A stretch of DNA of 32,166 nt from positions 1 through 32,166 of the IMG/VR virus record IMGVR_UViG_3300048895_000064; one strand, written 5' to 3'. Made by a program: the position numbers and the translations under genes. Shown piece after piece: positions 926-10,284 of this stretch (its first letter is position 1; each line of letters opens with the position of its first letter). This DNA comes from a virus (Duplodnaviria; Caudoviricetes). Below the pieces are notes generated by a model that worked only from the letters and a program-made list of their open reading frames with translations, had not been told where the DNA came from and made no database searches.

Positions 926-1047
926 TACACTAGACCGCAGCCGGGGCGGAGTCGTTCAGTCCGCGGGGAGTTGCCCCCCAACGACAGCCCGAAAGGGCGA
1001 GCCTTTCTCCTCCGCCCCGGCTGCTCTTCGTTTAGACAGGAGAGCAG
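926..1047 (+). promoter_or_regulatory. Putative -10 box (TACACT) and structured 5' leader of the DNA polymerase gene
   Basis: TACACT at 926-931; perfect 15-bp stem 937-951/1010-1024 enclosing GTCGTT/AACGAC and a GCCC-GAAA-GGGC hairpin; SD AGGAGA at 1038-1043. Confidence 0.55.
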
Positions 1048-3080
1048 TGGACACCATCACGGTGAACCGAGTGAAGTTCCCGGATGCGGCCAAGCCCATC
1101 ATCCGAGCAGCGGCTCTCTCTGCTCTGGGCGAACCACTGCGAATCAAGTACACCGACGGCGACGCTGACCTCGCGTTCGACCTGCTTGACCAGAACGCCG
1201 CCGTACGCACCCTCGGCCCGAAGCAGTTCTACGACGCGGTGTGGATCCCCCTCGAGAACGGGCAGGGCTTCCGCAAGGGGATCGGCTACCCGAACGCTCA
1301 GTATTACGTCCAGTTCGCGCTGAAGCAGGCGCACGGGCTGGACCTTCACATGTTCGACGACGACGTGCTCATCCTGGACACCGAGACGCACGGCTCCGAG
1401 CACCGCTGGAACATGGCACCGCGTGACTTCTTCCGGTTGGGTCAGTACGCATGGGGCGAGGGCGACGTGGTGCTCACCCAGGACTTCGACGAGGTGGTCG
1501 ACGCGATACGGTCGGCCCGGCTGATCATCGGCCACCAGATCCACTCCTACGACCTGTCCTATCTCATGAACGACGAGGCGCTCCACCTACCCGTGTTCGA
1601 CACCCTTGTCCATGCAACGTGCGTCACCCCCGCGCCTGACCGCTTCCTCAACGCGAAGGGCGTGGTCCAACTCTCCAACTCGCCGGGGTCTGCGCTGGCG
1701 TTCCATTCGCTCGAGAACGCCTGCTTCACCTTCGGCATCCCGGGGAAGCACGGCAACCTGAAAGACATGGCGAAGCGGCACGGGTGTGAGATCGGCGAGA
1801 TCCCGATCAACGACGAGTTCGAGGAGTACGCCCGACAGGACGTGGTGGCGAACCGAGAGTTGGCACGGGCCATGTTCAGTGTCGCCGAGCCCACGGACTA
1901 CGAGTGGCGGGAGCAGGAGGTAGCGGCGATCAACGCCCAGATCAGCCGCAACGGATTCCGCGTAGACCGGGACGTGGCCGAGGCACGGGTGCGGCAACTC
2001 CAGCGCCGGAAGGACGCCCTGCTCGTGGACCTTGTGATGGACTACGGGTTCCCGACGCAGGGGAAGCAGCCGTGGAGGAGCAACGCGGGGAAGGCCGCGA
2101 TCCTTGACATCCTGGGGCCGAGCGCGAAGCGGCTGCCCAAGACGAAGAAGGGCGCACCGTCCCTGTCCGGTGAAGCGATCAAGAGCGTGACCGTGGGTAC
2201 GGAGAACGAGGCGATGGGTGAGGCGCTGGGCGAACTGCTGGGTCAGCGGTCGCTGGCGCAACTCGCGCTCGAGAACACCCACGACGACGGCTTCGTCCAC
2301 CCAGACATCACGTCGCTTCAGCGGTCGCGGCGCTTCTCGGTATCCAACCCCGGCCTGTCAGTCTGGACAGCACACGGCCCCGGCGCGATTGAGAAGGCGT
2401 ACTTCGTGGCAGACGGCGATGACCACGTCCTGTACGAGATGGACTTCGCCGCAGCCGACGCCCGCGTGGTCGCGGCGTACAGCGGGGACCGGCACTACCT
2501 GAGGGACATGACGAACCCGAAGTTCGACGCTCACATCCAGACAGCGCGATGGTGCTACGGGGCGAAGTTGGACGAGGACCCGAAGAAGTACCGCCAGATC
2601 GCGAAGGACGTCACCCACGCCATCCCCTACGGCGCGGGCGGTAAGCGGGTGAGTGAGACGGTGGGTATCACGTTGAATCAGGGCTACGACGTGATCAAGA
2701 AGTTCGGCATGACCTACCCGTCAGTTGCCAAGTGGATGGAGCGGTCCCGCGAGGAGGGGAAGTGTGGCACGTTGACGAACGCATGGGGCGGGGTGCTCTA
2801 CCTGGAGCCGGGTCGTGAGTACACGCAGTCCCCCGCTCTGTATGGCCAGAACGGCACCCGCGAGTTGCTCGTTGACGGCATGATCCGATGCCGGGATGCG
2901 GGCCTGCTGCACTACCTCAAGATCACGGTTCACGACGCCGTCGTGTTCTCGTTCCCTAGGGACAATCACGAAGCGATGAAGAAGGAGGCCGAGGCGTGTT
3001 TCACCACGAAGTTCCGAGAGGTGCCGTTCCCCCTGACGAGCGGGAAGCCCGCCGACGATTGGTACGAGGCGGGGCACTGA
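1047..3080 (+). CDS. polA: DNA polymerase, family A, with 3'-5' exonuclease domain
   Basis: Exo motifs LDTETH, GHQIHSYDL, YARQDV; motif A DFAAADAR, motif B RQIAKDVTHAIPYG, motif C VHDA. Confidence 0.93.
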   Translation: MDTITVNRVKFPDAAKPIIRAAALSALGEPLRIKYTDGDADLAFDLLDQNAAVRTLGPKQFYDAVWIPLENGQGFRKGIGYPNAQYYVQFALKQAHGLDLHMFDDDVLILDTETHGSEHRWNMAPRDFFRLGQYAWGEGDVVLTQDFDEVVDAIRSARLIIGHQIHSYDLSYLMNDEALHLPVFDTLVHATCVTPAPDRFLNAKGVVQLSNSPGSALAFHSLENACFTFGIPGKHGNLKDMAKRHGCEIGEIPINDEFEEYARQDVVANRELARAMFSVAEPTDYEWREQEVAAINAQISRNGFRVDRDVAEARVRQLQRRKDALLVDLVMDYGFPTQGKQPWRSNAGKAAILDILGPSAKRLPKTKKGAPSLSGEAIKSVTVGTENEAMGEALGELLGQRSLAQLALENTHDDGFVHPDITSLQRSRRFSVSNPGLSVWTAHGPGAIEKAYFVADGDDHVLYEMDFAAADARVVAAYSGDRHYLRDMTNPKFDAHIQTARWCYGAKLDEDPKKYRQIAKDVTHAIPYGAGGKRVSETVGITLNQGYDVIKKFGMTYPSVAKWMERSREEGKCGTLTNAWGGVLYLEPGREYTQSPALYGQNGTRELLVDGMIRCRDAGLLHYLKITVHDAVVFSFPRDNHEAMKKEAEACFTTKFREVPFPLTSGKPADDWYEAGH

Positions 3081-3081
3081 C

Positions 3082-3939
3082 ATGATGGACCTCTACGATC
3101 ACATGGTGATAGAGCGGCATAAGATCTGGCTCGCCCGTCAGGACAATGCACCGCAGCCGTGGACCGAAGACCCGGTGCTGGTGAACCTGAAGATGACCAA
3201 TATGTTCCGCGTCCTCGACCCCGGCTCGCAGTTCGTGTTCGACCTCGACGGCGACGATCCGGTGGACGTGATCACCCGGCTGGTCTTCTACCGGATCACG
3301 AACCGCCCGTCGACGTGGTACGCGCTGAGGTCGTCGCTCGGGCGTTACCCGGTGGCCGCGGACTTCACCGAGAACCCGGAACGGATCACTGCCTTTTTGG
3401 ATCTGTACCGGAACCTGGGGAACCCGATCTTCAGCGGGGCGTACATCATCATCCCGAACCCCGGCGTCACCGGCAGCGACAAGATGGTCGATGCAATCTC
3501 ATTGGTCCGGTTCTTCATCGAGGAGAAGGCCGAGGCGTTCCTGGACGCCACTACCCAGGACGAGCGGTATCACCTGCTCAGGTCGACGAAGGGGCTGGGT
3601 CGCTTCCTGTCGATGCAGATCCTCACCGACTGGGACTACCTCCAGATCGATGAGCCGGACCTGTCGTTCGTGGTGGCTGGCCCCGGTGCCGTCCGCGGTG
3701 CCGCGCTGCTCGACCCGATCAAGAAAGCGGAGGACATGATCTACGATCTCGCCTTCGACTGGATGGCCTACGGTGCCGTCACGCTGGCGGGCCGCTCCCT
3801 CACGCCGATGGACGTGCAGAACACTCTCTGCGAGTTCAGCAAGTACGCCCGCGAGATCAACACCCCTCGCAGGAAGACGGCGTACCGACCCGCCCACCCC
3901 GGCGCTCAGCCAACCCCGATCCTCCCGCAGTGGTGGTAG
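3082..3939 (+). CDS. aGPT-Pplase1-like protein (amino acid:DNA transferase family, HhH-glycosylase-like fold), DNA hypermodification
   Basis: N-terminal ERHKIWLARQ..PQPWTEDPVL...TNMFRVLDPGSQ, central FSGAYII, GPGAVRG and C-terminal DVQNTLCEFSKY, which together are characteristic of this family. Confidence 0.8.
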   Translation: MMDLYDHMVIERHKIWLARQDNAPQPWTEDPVLVNLKMTNMFRVLDPGSQFVFDLDGDDPVDVITRLVFYRITNRPSTWYALRSSLGRYPVAADFTENPERITAFLDLYRNLGNPIFSGAYIIIPNPGVTGSDKMVDAISLVRFFIEEKAEAFLDATTQDERYHLLRSTKGLGRFLSMQILTDWDYLQIDEPDLSFVVAGPGAVRGAALLDPIKKAEDMIYDLAFDWMAYGAVTLAGRSLTPMDVQNTLCEFSKYAREINTPRRKTAYRPAHPGAQPTPILPQWW

Positions 3940-3960
3940 GACCAACCTGACTACCCCTCG

Positions 3961-3981
3961 CCTAGCCCACCCTGCTAGGCT
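3961..3981 (+). promoter_or_regulatory. Putative extended -10 promoter (TGC-TAGGCT) overlapping the inverted repeat CCTAGC-N7-GCTAGG
   Basis: Intergenic, about 35 nt before the ATG at 4015; resembles the - strand element at 12416-12434. Confidence 0.45.
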
Positions 3982-4014
3982 TAGGTGTAGGCAACCAATG
4001 GAGAAAGGCAGAAC

Positions 4015-4515
4015 ATGAGTCTGGCAAAGGTCAATCAGATCGGCCGGGTGCGGAAGCCCGGCAAGTGCGAGAAGTGCGGGCTGGAGATCAAGGTGGGAGA
4101 CCCCGCCGTCCGGTTCGCTGTGGGGTTCCGCGGGTTCACGCGTACCCGCTGCACGAAGCCTGAGTGCTTCCCCAAGCCCAGCGAGCGGGAGTCATCGTTC
4201 GTGGCTGACGCCTACGCCGCGCAGGAGGAGGTGGACGTCGACGGTGCGGGCAACCTGGAGGACCTGAACCAGATCCGCGACGACGTTGCCAACGCCGTGC
4301 GCGAGGTCGCCGGGCAGTACGAGGACAGTGAGATGTTCGACAAGAACGAGGACCTCCAGCAGCGGGCCGAGACGCTGAACGAAGCGGCTGACGAGTTGGA
4401 GAACTGGGAGCCGGAGGGCGAGGAGCCCACCGAGGATGCAACCGAGTACGAGGCGTGGCTCCAGCAGGCCCGTGAGTCCCTCAGCCTCGCGATCGACGGG
4501 ATGGAGTTGCCGTGA
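4015..4515 (+). CDS. Hypothetical protein with N-terminal Cys cluster (possible Zn finger) and acidic helical C-terminus
   Basis: CEKC...RCTKPEC followed by an acidic coiled-coil-like region; purine-rich RBS; GTGA overlap with the next gene. Confidence 0.75.
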   Translation: MSLAKVNQIGRVRKPGKCEKCGLEIKVGDPAVRFAVGFRGFTRTRCTKPECFPKPSERESSFVADAYAAQEEVDVDGAGNLEDLNQIRDDVANAVREVAGQYEDSEMFDKNEDLQQRAETLNEAADELENWEPEGEEPTEDATEYEAWLQQARESLSLAIDGMELP

Positions 4516-6053
4516 CGGAGAAGTACACGTTCCCCACGGCGAGTGAGGCGCTGCCGTTTATCTGCTCCCGCATCCTGGACATAGGCGACGAGGTGGGCAG
4601 CCGCAACGGGCGGGTGAAGGAACTCCTGAACACCCAGATCGTGCTGACCGACCCGCAGCGCCGGGAGATCCTCACCATCAACCGCAAGGCCAACATCTTC
4701 GCCCAGATCGCTGAGACGATGTGGGTGCTGGCCGGGCGCAACGACGTCGAGTGGTTGAGCGCCTACCTGCCGCGAGCCAAGGAGTACAGCGACGACGGCA
4801 TCACGTGGAGAGGCGGCTACGGCCCGCGTCTCCGGCAGTGGTCCACGCGCAAGCCGGGCGAGGACTACTATGCGCCGATCGATCAGGTCGCCCACGTCGT
4901 GGACTTGCTCCGGGAAGACCCACTGTCCCGGCGTGCGGTGATCGCGATCTACGACCCGGCGCGCGACACGGAGCCGGGCAAGGACATCCCTTGCAACGAC
5001 TTCCTCCAATTCCAGAGCCGCCTCGGTGCCCTGCACATGACCGTGACCGTGCGGTCGAACGACATGATGTGGGGCTGGTCGGGGATCAACGCTTTCGAGT
5101 GGAGCACGCTCCAGGAGATCGTGGCGCACCTGCTCGGGATTGCCGTGGGCACGCTCACGTTCAACATCGGCAGCCTGCACCTCTACGCACCGCATTGGGA
5201 GAGGGCCAATCGCTTCGAGTACGAAGACAACTCGTACGCGATCAGCCCGTTCCAGATGCCCGATCACATGAACCGAACCCTGTTCGAAGTGGACACCCTC
5301 CTCGACCAGTGGTTCGCATGGGAGGAGATGTGCCGGGCGGGCACGGCCACGCTGGAGCGCCTGGACAAGATCCAGGAACCGCTGTTCCAGTCCTGGGCCG
5401 TGGCGATTGCGTACTTCTGGCAGCGCGATGAGTTCTGGCTCAAGGCGCTCAACGGCACGGCGCTGGCAGCGGCCATAGCCAGGACCCCCGCCACGACGCT
5501 CTCAGAGGCCCCTCAGACGTCGCACGACACCGGGGCGGGGGTAACCCACAACCTAGCCGCGCACGACCGCACACGGGCGTTCTACGGTTTCGTCACCGAC
5601 CTGCACTTCAAGAAGCACGAGTCGTACGGAGACTCGTGGAAGAAGCGCGGCGAGAAGATGTCGATCCTGGCGAACATGGCTCGCAAGGTGGACCGGCTGG
5701 GGGTGGGTGACGAGTACGACAGTTCGGCTGACACCCTGATCGACCTGCTGGTCTACACGCTGAAGTACGGACTGTGGCTCGAGGGCAAGGACGACGGCCC
5801 CGAGAACGTCAACGACATGCTGTCGTGGTTCTTGGCGGAGACCGAGGAGTGCGTGGGGCAGGCGGCGGACATCGCCATCGTTGACATCGTGGATGACTTC
5901 AACCTCTACTGCGACAGCATCGATACGTACAGCACAGACCAGAAGTCGGACTTCGTCGCAGAGTTGGCGCGGCGCGTGGCCCCCATCGCCCGCGACGTCT
6001 GGTACGCGGAGACCTACGGCACCGACGAGTACCGAGGGGCAGACGCCGACTGA
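4512..6053 (+). CDS. Thymidylate synthase-like enzyme (probable dUMP hydroxymethylase) fused to a C-terminal Nmad1/DUF1599-like domain
   Basis: GGYGPRL, DPLSRRAVIAIYDP, catalytic DIPCN, RSNDMMWGWSGINAF and SLHLYAPH; C-terminal KHESYGDSWKKRG...ILANMARKVDRL...DTLIDLLVY. Confidence 0.85.
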   Translation: MTEKYTFPTASEALPFICSRILDIGDEVGSRNGRVKELLNTQIVLTDPQRREILTINRKANIFAQIAETMWVLAGRNDVEWLSAYLPRAKEYSDDGITWRGGYGPRLRQWSTRKPGEDYYAPIDQVAHVVDLLREDPLSRRAVIAIYDPARDTEPGKDIPCNDFLQFQSRLGALHMTVTVRSNDMMWGWSGINAFEWSTLQEIVAHLLGIAVGTLTFNIGSLHLYAPHWERANRFEYEDNSYAISPFQMPDHMNRTLFEVDTLLDQWFAWEEMCRAGTATLERLDKIQEPLFQSWAVAIAYFWQRDEFWLKALNGTALAAAIARTPATTLSEAPQTSHDTGAGVTHNLAAHDRTRAFYGFVTDLHFKKHESYGDSWKKRGEKMSILANMARKVDRLGVGDEYDSSADTLIDLLVYTLKYGLWLEGKDDGPENVNDMLSWFLAETEECVGQAADIAIVDIVDDFNLYCDSIDTYSTDQKSDFVAELARRVAPIARDVWYAETYGTDEYRGADAD

Positions 6054-7075
6054 TGCTGCGAGATGAGATGTTCCACTACCTGTACCGGGTGGAGAAGGAA
6101 GACCGCCTCCCGGTATGGGTGATCTCGTACAACCGATACGACGCTCCCACTCTGACCAGGATGTCGGAGTGGGAGCGCCTGGACGACATTCACGTGGTCG
6201 TCCGAGAGTCACAGATCGCCGCGTACCGCAGACACTTCCCTGCCCTGCGGTTCGAGGCGTTGCCTGACGAGCAGATCGGTTCCTGCGGAGCGGCCCGCTG
6301 GGGCGCGTACGACCTAGCCCGTGAGTTCGGCTACCAGCGGGCCGTGATGATGGACGACGACCTGCTCCAGTTTCGCCCGCTGTATCAGCACCACTTCGTC
6401 AAGGGGCCGAACGCCGGGGCACCGTGCAGCCGGGTCTTCGACAAGGACGACATCGAGGAGTTCGGTGGGCTGGCCGCGCTGGAAGAGGCCACCGTGACCA
6501 TGATGGGCAAGGTCGCTGATGACGTCTTCGACGAGGAGCCGAAGGCGGTGATCGGCACCACGATCAAACGGCTGCGGTCGTTCGACAATCGGAACCACGC
6601 GACTCGGTACTACCTGAACGGCGGGAGCACCCCGCGCCAGTGGACGGCGTGGGACCTGGAGAGGCTGGAAGAGCACGGCATCCGGCTCAACCTCGAACAG
6701 TTCGGCATCGTAGGTGAGGACGTCGGCTTTCTTGCCACGCTGTTCCAGGCGGGCATGGACGCTTTCACCATGCCGTCGTTCGCGTTCGAGTACTGGAATC
6801 AGAACGAGGGCCGGAACCGGGTTCAGGAGGCGGACACGCAGACGACCATCCGAACGCCGGGGCTTGCGGCCCTCCTCTCCGAGCATGAGTACGCGATGCT
6901 CCGCCTGTACGAGATGGGGGACAACTACCTGCGCGTCTGCCCGAAGGGCGGAGAAGAGTATGAGTGGGGTGAGGTGGACTGGCGGGCGTTGTCAAAGTAC
7001 CGGGGCAGCGAGATGAAGCGTGTTCTCTGGTACGCGGACCAAGACCGGATCGACGAAATGAAGGAGTTGTTATGA
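6053..7075 (+). CDS. GT-A glycosyltransferase, TAGT/GREB1-like (phage DNA-base glycosyltransferase)
   Basis: VWVISYNR, HVVVRESQIAAY, IGSCGAAR, metal-binding VMMDDD and late GEDV motif; translationally coupled to the TS-like gene. Confidence 0.72.
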   Translation: MLRDEMFHYLYRVEKEDRLPVWVISYNRYDAPTLTRMSEWERLDDIHVVVRESQIAAYRRHFPALRFEALPDEQIGSCGAARWGAYDLAREFGYQRAVMMDDDLLQFRPLYQHHFVKGPNAGAPCSRVFDKDDIEEFGGLAALEEATVTMMGKVADDVFDEEPKAVIGTTIKRLRSFDNRNHATRYYLNGGSTPRQWTAWDLERLEEHGIRLNLEQFGIVGEDVGFLATLFQAGMDAFTMPSFAFEYWNQNEGRNRVQEADTQTTIRTPGLAALLSEHEYAMLRLYEMGDNYLRVCPKGGEEYEWGEVDWRALSKYRGSEMKRVLWYADQDRIDEMKELL

Positions 7076-7756: not shown

Positions 7757-7950
7757 TGGACCATCCCACGTTCGTACGTGTGGAGTACTGGAACGCGATG
7801 ACCGCGTCTTGGGGGACCGGGCACGCCGGGATCAACCTGATGAACCCCGCCGTCTACGTCCAGAAGTTGGCGAAGCGCGGAGTCATCGCACGGGCCGTCG
7901 AGGTAGACACCGGGGAGACGGTGTACGGAGAAGGCGCAGACCTCCTTTGA
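7756..7950 (+). CDS. Hypothetical protein (64 aa)
   Basis: MDHPTFVRVEYWN...; TGATG coupling at both ends. Confidence 0.65.
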   Translation: MDHPTFVRVEYWNAMTASWGTGHAGINLMNPAVYVQKLAKRGVIARAVEVDTGETVYGEGADLL

Positions 7951-8642
7951 TGGACGCCGTCTACGTATGCCGAGACGGCGAGAACCCCGAACTCCGGTAC
8001 TCCCTCCGCACGCTGGCGAATGTGGACCATGACCGGGTATGGATCTTCGGGGGTGCGCCTACCTGGGTCAACGAGGTCACCCACCAGAAGCGGGTGCAGG
8101 GTGGGTCGCCGTACTCCTCGACGCGAGGCCACATCGGGGCCGCGTGCAACACCCCCGAGGTGAGCGATCCCTTCATGCTCTGGAACGACGACTTCTTCGC
8201 GATGCACCCGGTCGGCAGCGTGCCGCTCTACCATCGTGGCCTGCTGGAGCCCCTGCTCGAGAGGTACGTCAAGAACAAGACGCCGTGGGGGAAGGGGCTG
8301 CGCGAGACCGCCGCGCTGATGGAGCAGCGTGGGATGCTGGCGGGGGCGATGTGCTACGACGTCCACCTACCGCTGATCGTTCACAAGACGCCGATGCGGG
8401 AGGCGCTGCGGCTGGCGAAGAGCGTCTCCACCGACGCCGTCCACGTGAGGACCCTGTACGGGGCCTTGTCAGGCTGTAAGGGTGTGGAGCATGATGACCC
8501 GAAGTTGATGCGACGGAGCGACCCGTTCCCGCGTGGCGCGTGGCTGTCCTCTAGCGGCGACACGTTCCGTTCAGCCGTGGAGCCGGTGCTGAGGTATCTG
8601 TTCCCAGACGTTTCACCCTACGAGAAAGCGTGGCGCATGTGA
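7950..8642 (+). CDS. Stealth-like sugar-phosphotransferase/glycosyltransferase
   Basis: Start MDAVYV (CR1-like), ELRYSLRTL and EVSDPFMLWNDDFF (CR2-like); TGATG coupling. Confidence 0.7.
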   Translation: MDAVYVCRDGENPELRYSLRTLANVDHDRVWIFGGAPTWVNEVTHQKRVQGGSPYSSTRGHIGAACNTPEVSDPFMLWNDDFFAMHPVGSVPLYHRGLLEPLLERYVKNKTPWGKGLRETAALMEQRGMLAGAMCYDVHLPLIVHKTPMREALRLAKSVSTDAVHVRTLYGALSGCKGVEHDDPKLMRRSDPFPRGAWLSSSGDTFRSAVEPVLRYLFPDVSPYEKAWRM

Positions 8643-9316
8643 CACTCGGGATCCTTCTCCCCACACGGGGGCGACCAGACAACCTCCACCGCTTCCTCTC
8701 GGCGGTCGAGGACACCGCTGACGACTGGCACCTGTACCTCCGGCTCGACTACGACGACCCGCAGGCACCCGCGTACGACGAAGTCATCGGGCGGGCGTAT
8801 CGGAACATCACGGTCCGCCACGGTGCTCGCATCGGCTTCGGTGCCTCCCTGAACGAACTCGCTTTCCTCGCAGAGCGGGACGGGGTGCCACACCTCGGCA
8901 TGTTCGGTGACGACGTGGTGCCGGAGACCCCACATTGGGACACCCGGCTGGTCGAGGGGCTGGGCGACGACCTCGGCATCGCCTACGGTGACGACGGCCT
9001 ACGGCACAAGCATGAGCCCGACCTGCCGACGCACTACGTCACCCATGCGGAGGTCTACCGTCGTCTCGGCTACCTGTCGCCACCCACCATCCGCCACCTG
9101 TTCCTGGACAACGTGGCGAGAGACGTGGGCCGGTATCTCCACAACTTCGTGTTCGTGCCGGTTAGCATCAGGCATCTCCACCCGTGGGTCGAGGGTGAGC
9201 AGGTCCACGACTCCACGTACGCTGAGGGTGGGCGCAACGCCGACCTCCGCCGCATGGACCGAATGGCCTACGTCCGCTGGACGCAGGACCGCGACTGGAA
9301 GCGCCGCCTGCGATGA
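8630..9316 (+). CDS. GT-A (family 2-like) glycosyltransferase
   Basis: ILLPTRGRPDNL, MFGDDVV (DxD-like), HLFLDN, IRHLHP; alternative GTG start at 8639. Confidence 0.8.
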   Translation: MAHVTLGILLPTRGRPDNLHRFLSAVEDTADDWHLYLRLDYDDPQAPAYDEVIGRAYRNITVRHGARIGFGASLNELAFLAERDGVPHLGMFGDDVVPETPHWDTRLVEGLGDDLGIAYGDDGLRHKHEPDLPTHYVTHAEVYRRLGYLSPPTIRHLFLDNVARDVGRYLHNFVFVPVSIRHLHPWVEGEQVHDSTYAEGGRNADLRRMDRMAYVRWTQDRDWKRRLR

Positions 9317-10284
9317 CACTCACCGCGTTCCTCCACGGCTACCCTCCGCTCTGGTCCATGGGCGGGGAGATGTCTACCCACCGCACTCTCCGCGCCGTGC
9401 CGGGGGCCGTCGTGTTCACGGAGACGCTCGAGGGCTATCAGTACGACGGGGTCTCGGTGAGGCCGGCGACAGGCGTATCCCTTCAGTGCATCAAGGACGA
9501 CGCCGTGTCCGCCGGGGCTACCATCCTGTTCGGGCACTCGACACTGTCCGAGGACACCATCAAGGCTGCGAAGCGGATGCGCCTCCCGTCTATCCTCGCT
9601 GTCCATGCGCCGCCCCGCTTCGGGAAAGACCTGCGACGGGCACGAACAGACGCCACAGTCCGCCTCTACAACACGGAGGCTGCTCGCAAGGACTGGCACG
9701 ACCCGAGGGGGTGGGTGCTGCACCCGCCTGTCGGGTTGCCGAGGCCGATACCGGAGGGGCCGCACAACGCACGAACGCTGACCTCGTCTCTCGTGAACAA
9801 GGGCGCGGAGCGGGTGCTCGAGTTGGCGAAGCGACGCCATGACCAGCGGTTCATCATTGTGGAGTCGCCCGCACACACGACTCACGGTGACCCCGACTTC
9901 TGGGCGCAGGCTGAGAAGTTCGACAACGTAGAGATCTGGCCGCGCTTGCACCCCGACGAGATGGGCAGGCTCTGGGCCGAGACTCGCGTGCTGCTGGTCC
10001 CGTCGCGGTACGAGACCTACGGCATGGCCGCGATGGAGGCGGCGTGGTACGGAATCCCCTCGGTACACGTGGACACACCCCACGTACGAGAAGGGATCGG
10101 CGAGGCGGCGCTGCTTCTCCAGTCCACGTCGTTCGAGGAACTGGACCACGCGCTCACCGAGGTAGAGATCGAGCACGACGTCTGGGCGGACCGGGCCTAC
10201 GACCGCGTCAGCAGCCTCGCGCAGCGGGAGGCGGACGAGTTGGCCCGGTTTGCGGCGGGCGTGGCAGCACTCACGCGACCGTAG
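9313..10284 (+). CDS. GT-B (family 4-like) glycosyltransferase
   Basis: HGYPPLWSMGGE N-terminus, NKG, and LLVPSRYETYGMAAMEAAWYGIPSV (ExxxxxxxE signature). Confidence 0.85.
   Translation: MTLTAFLHGYPPLWSMGGEMSTHRTLRAVPGAVVFTETLEGYQYDGVSVRPATGVSLQCIKDDAVSAGATILFGHSTLSEDTIKAAKRMRLPSILAVHAPPRFGKDLRRARTDATVRLYNTEAARKDWHDPRGWVLHPPVGLPRPIPEGPHNARTLTSSLVNKGAERVLELAKRRHDQRFIIVESPAHTTHGDPDFWAQAEKFDNVEIWPRLHPDEMGRLWAETRVLLVPSRYETYGMAAMEAAWYGIPSVHVDTPHVREGIGEAALLLQSTSFEELDHALTEVEIEHDVWADRAYDRVSSLAQREADELARFAAGVAALTRP

Follow-up and report, generated by a model that had tools for sequence, protein, structure and literature searches.

We analyzed a predicted DNA hypermodification cassette that lies directly downstream of polA in IMGVR_UViG_3300048895_000064, a linear record of a tailed soil virus (32,166 bp, 44% complete, GC content ~65%), which in its whole length is referred to here as the window. 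It is arranged as a replication arm on the plus strand and a siphovirus-like structural arm on the minus strand. In the replication arm, genes for a single-stranded DNA-binding protein (SSB) and for PolA are followed by a gene of aGPT-Pplase clade 1 (285 amino acids), a 166-amino-acid open reading frame (ORF), a fused gene at 4512-6053 (513 amino acids) that joins a domain of the thymidylate synthase (TS) superfamily to a helical tail, and a glycosyltransferase (GT) gene of the TAGT family (340 amino acids; Table 1). The polA stop codon ends at 3080, directly before the ATG of the clade-1 gene at 3082, and the following junctions are marked by GTGA (4512-4515, overlap), TGATG (6051-6055), and ATGA (7072-7075). 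The gene content suggests that 5-hydroxymethyluracil (hmU) replaces thymine in the DNA of this phage and that part of it is glycosylated.

A preliminary description made from the sequence alone had placed three modification genes in a tight run behind polA, and their coordinates, order, and strand proved right; the 166-amino-acid ORF was missing from that description. Profile searches likewise bore out the aGPT-Pplase1-like gene (PF18723), the TS part of the fusion (PF00303), and the translationally coupled TAGT gene (PF20691), each above its cut-off. The assignment of the tail to the Nmad1 family gained no Pfam match and has indirect support.

Table 1. Features of the predicted modification cassette and its surroundings in the window.
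Feature	Coordinates	Strand	Evidence
Family A DNA polymerase	1047..3080	+	PF00476, phrog_17; replicative; would incorporate hmdUTP (predicted)
aGPT-Pplase clade 1 (Pfam HMUDK_hel)	3082..3939	+	PF18723, 157.7 bits
166-amino-acid accessory ORF	4015..4515	+	No Pfam match over cut-off, no PHROG match
Predicted dUMP hydroxymethylase domain (TS superfamily)	4512..5500	+	PF00303, 91.9 bits (cut-off 24.3)
C-terminal Nmad1/DUF1599-like helical domain	5562..6053	+	Atlas lead; SP10 gp189 profile match
TAGT-family GT-A, predicted DNA glycosyltransferase	6053..7075	+	PF20691, 40.3 bits (cut-off 27.5); DDD at 101-103; stop-start overlap, translationally coupled to the hydroxymethylase gene

The cassette was found again in other assemblies, with a GT identity of 95-98% (our loci L103 and L104), and is thus not an artefact. 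Overlapping pieces from four sequencing runs bridge single junctions, and none spans the whole cassette. In order to compare relatives, loci were collected from TS-, GT-, and clade-1-seeded scans, kept if they had a strong TS match with a fused tail, and merged at 97% identity into 40 groups. These thresholds excluded loci in which the TS is cut or not fused, such as L029, L110, L124, L127, and those of the Microbacterium type. The order SSB-polA-clade 1-TS is conserved in most relatives, and a clade-1 gene stands beside the fused enzyme in 39 of the 40 groups, the remaining one being cut upstream.

The fused enzyme is predicted to make hydroxymethyl-dUMP

In the TS superfamily, an asparagine at position N177 is diagnostic for dUMP as substrate, an acidic residue at L143 for hydroxymethylation, and the exchange D169N for hydroxylation (PMC13326640). 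The window enzyme has its catalytic cysteine at C161 and carries N193, D158, and D184 at the N177, L143, and D169 positions, respectively. This D/D/N signature was present in 40/40 fused enzymes and is shared with SPO1, SP10, and M6, whereas the T4-like Td and the SPbeta TS have a leucine at the L143 position. In view of N193 and D184, specificity for dCMP or 5-hydroxy-dCMP was rejected. In blastp searches, the TS domain scored 121-152 bits against the enzymes of SPO1, SP10, M6, and a ViI-like phage, 62-74 bits against true TS, and 51 bits against a dCMP hydroxymethylase. Furthermore, the same fused enzyme stands beside a full set of amino acid:DNA transferase (AADT), pyridoxal phosphate (PLP) enzyme, and kinase in 19/40 groups. 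This set requires hmU in DNA. The domain is predicted to be a dUMP hydroxymethylase that makes 5-hydroxymethyl-dUMP.

An ordinary dTMP synthase, in a cluster that serves nucleotide metabolism without base modification, would be very improbable. A quick TS tree gives this reading some room, as its deep polytomy leaves the placement of the clade relative to the SPO1/SP10/M6 enzymes and to true TS unsettled. Against it stand the invariant aspartate at the L143 position, blastp scores to enzymes of hmU phages that are about twice those to true TS, and the AADT modules that adjoin orthologues of the gene.

No Pfam family, PF07659 included, matched the C-terminal tail. Its first match in the Atlas, "Nucleotide modification associated domain 1" (0.85), serves as a lead only. 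A profile of the tail matched SP10 gp189, the gene that follows the SP10 hydroxymethylase (7e-12; same three PHROGs), and in phiRSL1 it likewise picked the gene next in line behind the hydroxymethylase; SP10 gp189 itself has a weak DUF1599 match below the cut-off (E 0.02). The Nmad1/DUF1599 family has a putative nucleotide pyrophosphatase role in the removal of dTTP and dUTP. An enzyme that removes dTTP/dUTP is needed by modification pathways of this kind (PMC13458397), and family knowledge and this need together point to the tail as a putative Nmad1-like nucleotide pyrophosphatase. In two relatives, the hydroxymethylase/Nmad1 gene is split over two to three frames (L018 8001-9558 and L021 3203-4763), by frameshifts or assembly errors.

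Sugar and amino-acid modules appear to alternate on a common core

The 40 groups comprised 19 with AADT, PLP enzyme, and kinase, three with the kinase only, 11 with a TAGT, three with only a divergent GT-like gene upstream, and four with neither module, two of which are cut. A TAGT together with a kinase/AADT module was found in 0/40 groups, which do not amount to 40 independent trials, five of the 11 TAGT groups being GT-seeded and the groups being related. For the same reasons, and because the survey profiles were built from members of the same loci, the nominal hypergeometric P for this exclusion (1e-5 to 1e-7) is overstated. TAGT genes follow the hydroxymethylase gene directly in the window's clade, in Brevibacterium phage LuckyBarnes, and in L014 and L068. 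On the quick TS tree these do not fall together, and GT-type members occupy four separate places.

Searches of whole records agreed with this picture. PF18751 was found in 0/4 near-complete GT-type relatives (control positive) and in neither of the records G013 and G015; PF18748 likewise gave 0/4 in the near-complete GT-type relatives, with M6 positive. PF18724 had no match in G006 or G007, with two positive controls, and PF20691 was found in 0/4 AADT-type records. Further record searches, which had no positive control, gave 0/5 for PF18724 and 0/5 for the GT profile. From its context, the PF18751 kinase of the AADT-type relatives would be an hmU DNA kinase. In the window, a pattern search found no Walker A motif, and no 5-hmdU DNA kinase was seen in this 44%-complete record, from which it is likely absent. 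Given that TAGT and kinase/AADT/PLP genes never occurred together in the relatives examined, the two modules, for sugar and for amino acids, seem to be interchangeable units attached to a single hmU core. The proposed combination of a sugar branch and an amino-acid branch in one phage did not hold.

The glycosyltransferase is predicted to act on DNA

The model of the 6053-7075 product shows a confident GT-A fold with a DxD-type motif (D101-D103). Its best named viral structure matches are phage TAGTs, while its matches in the PDB are general GT-A enzymes. We found 87 homologues, which fall into two identity tiers, whereas tblastn against GenBank phages returned nothing at E 1e-5. Some relatives carry two TAGT paralogues (L006; L107/L113). 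In L006, the second one occupies an upstream slot after a sigma-region-4 helix-turn-helix gene (L006:828-1826). This slot can instead hold a divergent protein of 310 amino acids that carries an LLDDD motif and matched neither Pfam nor PHROG families (L009:918-1847, L004:464-1390, L074 near 700); the window contig ends before it.

We considered whether hmU DNA is made, with or without conversion to thymine, while the GT targets something else, such as a virion protein or the host envelope. We regard this as quite unlikely. The general GT-A enzymes among the PDB matches would fit it, as would human GREB1, which contains a related GT domain and O-GlcNAcylates a protein (PMC7968844), the record G009 with the core and without any GT found, and the lack of the downstream TAGT in L004, L005, and L009. 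However, the closest structural relatives of the window GT are phage TAGTs, its start codon overlaps the stop of the hydroxymethylase gene, and a TAGT repeatedly fills the place that the AADT module takes in other relatives.

A better candidate for glycosylation of a target other than DNA is a second glycan trio beside the tail genes (7947-10284), which encodes a Stealth-like CR2 protein (weak match), a GT2-like protein (phrog_14945), and a GT4. The trio is retained in L005, L006, and L009 regardless of the downstream TAGT, its GT2 has homologues in Streptomyces phages, and it may glycosylate the virion or the host surface.

The clade-1 protein is distinct from the proven amino acid:DNA transferases

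The PF18723 match of the 3082-3939 product (cut-off 25 bits) covers model positions 4-274 of 281. Among the reference phages, PF18723 matched M6 gp55 and, in SP10 gp186, the C-terminal half, whereas M6 gp51, the proven glycine transferase, belongs to PF18724 (159.6 bits). The window protein is homologous to M6 gp55 (27% identity, E 1e-16 by blastp) and to SP10 gp186; blastp gave no match to M6 gp51 or to the kinase gp54, and PF18724 matched neither this protein nor anything else in the 44%-complete record. The label "amino acid:DNA transferase-like" given in the preliminary description therefore names the wrong clade. Transferase activity has been assigned to clade 2, and M6 gp55 was dispensable for glycine transfer (PMC8989533). 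A function as 5-hmdU DNA kinase, as the Pfam name would have it, was rejected on the grounds of an almost all-helical model without Walker A motif or P-loop domain; the name HMUDK_hel appears to reflect the kinase fusion in SP10 gp186 (L098:6562-8475), whose clade-1 domain retains the cysteine motif described below.

The model of the window protein (pLDDT 91.8) is almost all-helical and resembles the helix-hairpin-helix DNA glycosylase fold. PaMx11 gp46 (8z2m), an AADT, was the first Foldseek row, albeit at E 0.18, and its structure match (Z 9.4, rmsd 4.4, 218 residues aligned) was tied with DUF2419 and 8-oxoG glycosylases. Foldseek against the PDB returned nothing at E<=0.001, phmmer of clade 1 against the PDB gave 0 matches, and the profile match between clades 1 and 2 was not significant (probability 0.25%). 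Nevertheless, Cys250 is invariant in 21/21 aligned clade-1 homologues, within a C-terminal motif that resembles that of clade 2. PaMx11 gp46 employs covalent catalysis through a cysteine (PMC11472151), and by motif likeness Cys250 would be equivalent to its Cys247. By sequence, the product is a catalytic-looking paralogue, neither a kinase nor a proven AADT. The aGPT-Pplase families were reportedly defined by Iyer et al. in 2013, who may already describe this neighborhood.

Clade 1 might itself act as a group transferase and put an amine or amino acid onto hmU, with the GT decorating the adduct or both bases coexisting. In addition to the fold shared with gp46 and the cysteine motif, two phages argue for such a role. 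SP10 makes glutamyl-thymine (PMC5889632), its kinase is fused to clade 1, and PF18724 does not match in it; in phage Golden, which also has no PF18724 match, a kinase adjoins clade 1; a transferase role is thus possible when a kinase is present. TAGTs can also act in a second step. However, the known transfer depends on hmU that has been phosphorylated, and the near-complete GT-type relatives searched yielded no kinase. Together with the dispensability of M6 gp55 and the insignificant match between the clades, this makes a transferase role in the window decidedly unlikely.

Since clade 1 persists where both kinase and AADT are missing, it would need neither, and it probably performs a kinase-independent step common to both branches. 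Clade 1 occurs in M6, SP10, and a ViI-like phage, whereas SPO1, an hmU phage, lacks it; virions of M6, ViI, and SP10 contain no hmU (PMC8989533). On the strength of five genomes, we tentatively suggest, at somewhat less than even odds, that clade 1 uses its conserved cysteine to turn leftover hmU into thymine.

Clade 1 is also found in Microbacterium phages of the Morrigan/Golden type. The "thymidylate synthases" of these phages (L003:14020-14922, L095:6892-7698, L078-L087) have a dCMP-hydroxymethylase signature, group with T4-like gp42, and stand beside clade 1 and a TAGT or a P-loop kinase. For these teaching-collection phages, a modification based on 5-hydroxymethylcytosine (hmC) is predicted.

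Proposed pathway

We propose, with a probability of about 0.6, that this phage has hmU in place of thymine, that the adjacent TAGT puts a sugar on part of the hmU, and that no amino-acid adduct is formed. The hydroxymethylase would make 5-hydroxymethyl-dUMP and the Nmad1-like tail would deplete dTTP and dUTP, while host kinases would provide hmdUTP, which PolA would incorporate in place of thymine. The TAGT would then move a sugar from a host nucleotide-sugar onto the free hydroxyl of part of the hmU, giving a base-J-like glycosyl-hmU; as the sugar goes onto a free hydroxyl, no DNA kinase would be needed. Clade 1 would carry out the shared step without a phage kinase, perhaps the conversion of the remaining hmU to thymine. 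The modification would protect the DNA from restriction enzymes. The more specific combination of a base-J-like glycosyl-hmU made by a pre-replicative route with a clade-1 enzyme that turns DNA hmU back to thymine without a kinase is, as a whole, unlikely. The preliminary description had likewise assumed that hmU is synthesized as a nucleotide and had envisaged a base-J-like sugar, both of which our inferences uphold; its amino-acid adduct or composite base found no support, given that the proven transferases belong to clade 2 and that gp55 is dispensable.

In addition to the dependence among the surveyed groups and the 44% completeness of the window, several observations weigh against this proposal. 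The core of clade 1, hydroxymethylase, and Nmad1 stands in G009 (L019; 100% complete, 46.7 kb), in which a search found no TAGT/GT, AADT, or PF18751 kinase. In G005 and G013, the divergent GT-like gene stands alone, and its link to TAGT is weak (21.9% probability by hhalign, E 0.001; GT2 in 30% of one Atlas cluster). The PF20691 match is confined to residues 20-111 of the GT, and the TAGT of T6-like phages is thought to add the second sugar and not the first (PMC13390438). A scan of 96 proteins from three close relatives showed neither a dNMP kinase nor a dCMP deaminase. Finally, clade 1 stands beside an Asp-type (dCMP) enzyme in 15/15 Microbacterium-type loci among those listed, and because of this pairing it is not specific for thymine or uracil.

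Comparison with known systems

The thymine hypermodification of M6, ViI, PaMx11, and phiW-14 employs a dUMP hydroxymethylase, a 5-hmdU DNA kinase (5-HMUDK), and a clade-2 AADT (PMC8989533). The window shares the dUMP-hydroxymethylase-type enzyme and the clade-1 paralogue, but neither kinase, clade-2 AADT, nor PLP enzyme was found in the window or its near-complete GT-type relatives, and a TAGT takes their slot. Base J of kinetoplastids, made by JBP1/2 and the J-glucosyltransferase (JGT), is alike in the last step only, in which the window GT-A is predicted to O-glycosylate DNA-borne hmU: there hmU arises from a dioxygenase acting on DNA, here, as predicted, from the nucleotide pool. Phage GT-As structurally resemble JGT (bioRxiv 2023.12.21.572611). 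Neither the 29 proteins of the window nor 96 proteins from three relatives included a JBP/TET dioxygenase, although no search was aimed at it. The beta-glucosyl-HMC-alpha-glucosyltransferase of T2/T6 and the TET-associated phage GTs share PF20691 and the GT-A fold but act on hmC or glucosyl-hmC, whereas the partner of the window GT has a dUMP signature.

HTVC023P-type pelagiphages carry a TS, an aG/PT-PPlase1, as well as a beta-glucosyl-HMC-alpha-glucosyltransferase near PolA (PMC9599517). They are marine podoviruses, and the available text of that report gives no chemistry, substrate signature, or module exclusion. LuckyBarnes has a fused hydroxymethylase/Nmad1 (42% identity), two TAGTs, and clade 1 in gp38-gp41, and differs in gene order and GT subfamily (~20% identity to the window GT). 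Glutamicibacter phage Montesquieu (gp39-52) has the same core but an AADT module. The unrelated Ralstonia jumbo phage phiRSL1 combines clade 1 and a D/D/N enzyme with an Nmad1-like gene, three TAGTs, and genes for sugar-nucleotide enzymes in ORF229-238. Its cluster (L128:2672-11768) also has a sulfotransferase and an adenylylsulfate (APS) kinase, which suggests a sulfated oligosaccharide on hmU.

Accessory gene and host

The 166-amino-acid ORF has a Cys-rich N-terminus and an acidic helical C-terminus. It is missing from the close relatives L006 and L009, stands at other positions in L011, L022, and L025, and is probably a mobile insertion in the cassette, outside the pathway. A WhiB-like gene and relatives among Brevibacterium, Glutamicibacter, and Streptomyces phages point to an actinobacterial host; a GTDB scan returned five loci and no clear host.

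Implications

The co-occurrence of the three genes, put forward as a candidate new pathway in the preliminary description, is already in print for pelagiphages, where the trio lies beside PolA (PMC9599517), and is present in the cultured phages LuckyBarnes and phiRSL1; Pyle et al. note GT-As associated with ThyS in bulk (bioRxiv 2023.12.21.572611). In the literature searched (mostly open texts, main text only, Iyer et al. 2013 not among them), we found no glycosyl-hmU made by a dUMP hydroxymethylase and a TAGT, no function for clade 1, no mutual exclusion of GT and AADT, and no chemical proof of a phage glycosyl-hmU. Within this literature, the characterized hmU hypermodifications of phages proceed by phosphorylation and subsequent transfer of an amine or amino acid, and phage sugar transfers are made onto cytosine derivatives or long linkers.

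If the proposal is true, direct glycosyl-hmU would be a phage counterpart of base J and would provide a source of enzymes for the labelling of hmU. The swap of modules narrows the question of what clade-1 aGPT-Pplases do, and G009 offers a naturally occurring case in which clade 1 could be tested by itself. LuckyBarnes (GT type) and Montesquieu (AADT type), whose hosts are harmless, form a cultured pair in which the two branches can be compared. If glycosylation and the reversion of hmU to thymine both occur as suggested, GT phages without a kinase, LuckyBarnes among them, would hold the two activities in isolation within a system of three genes.

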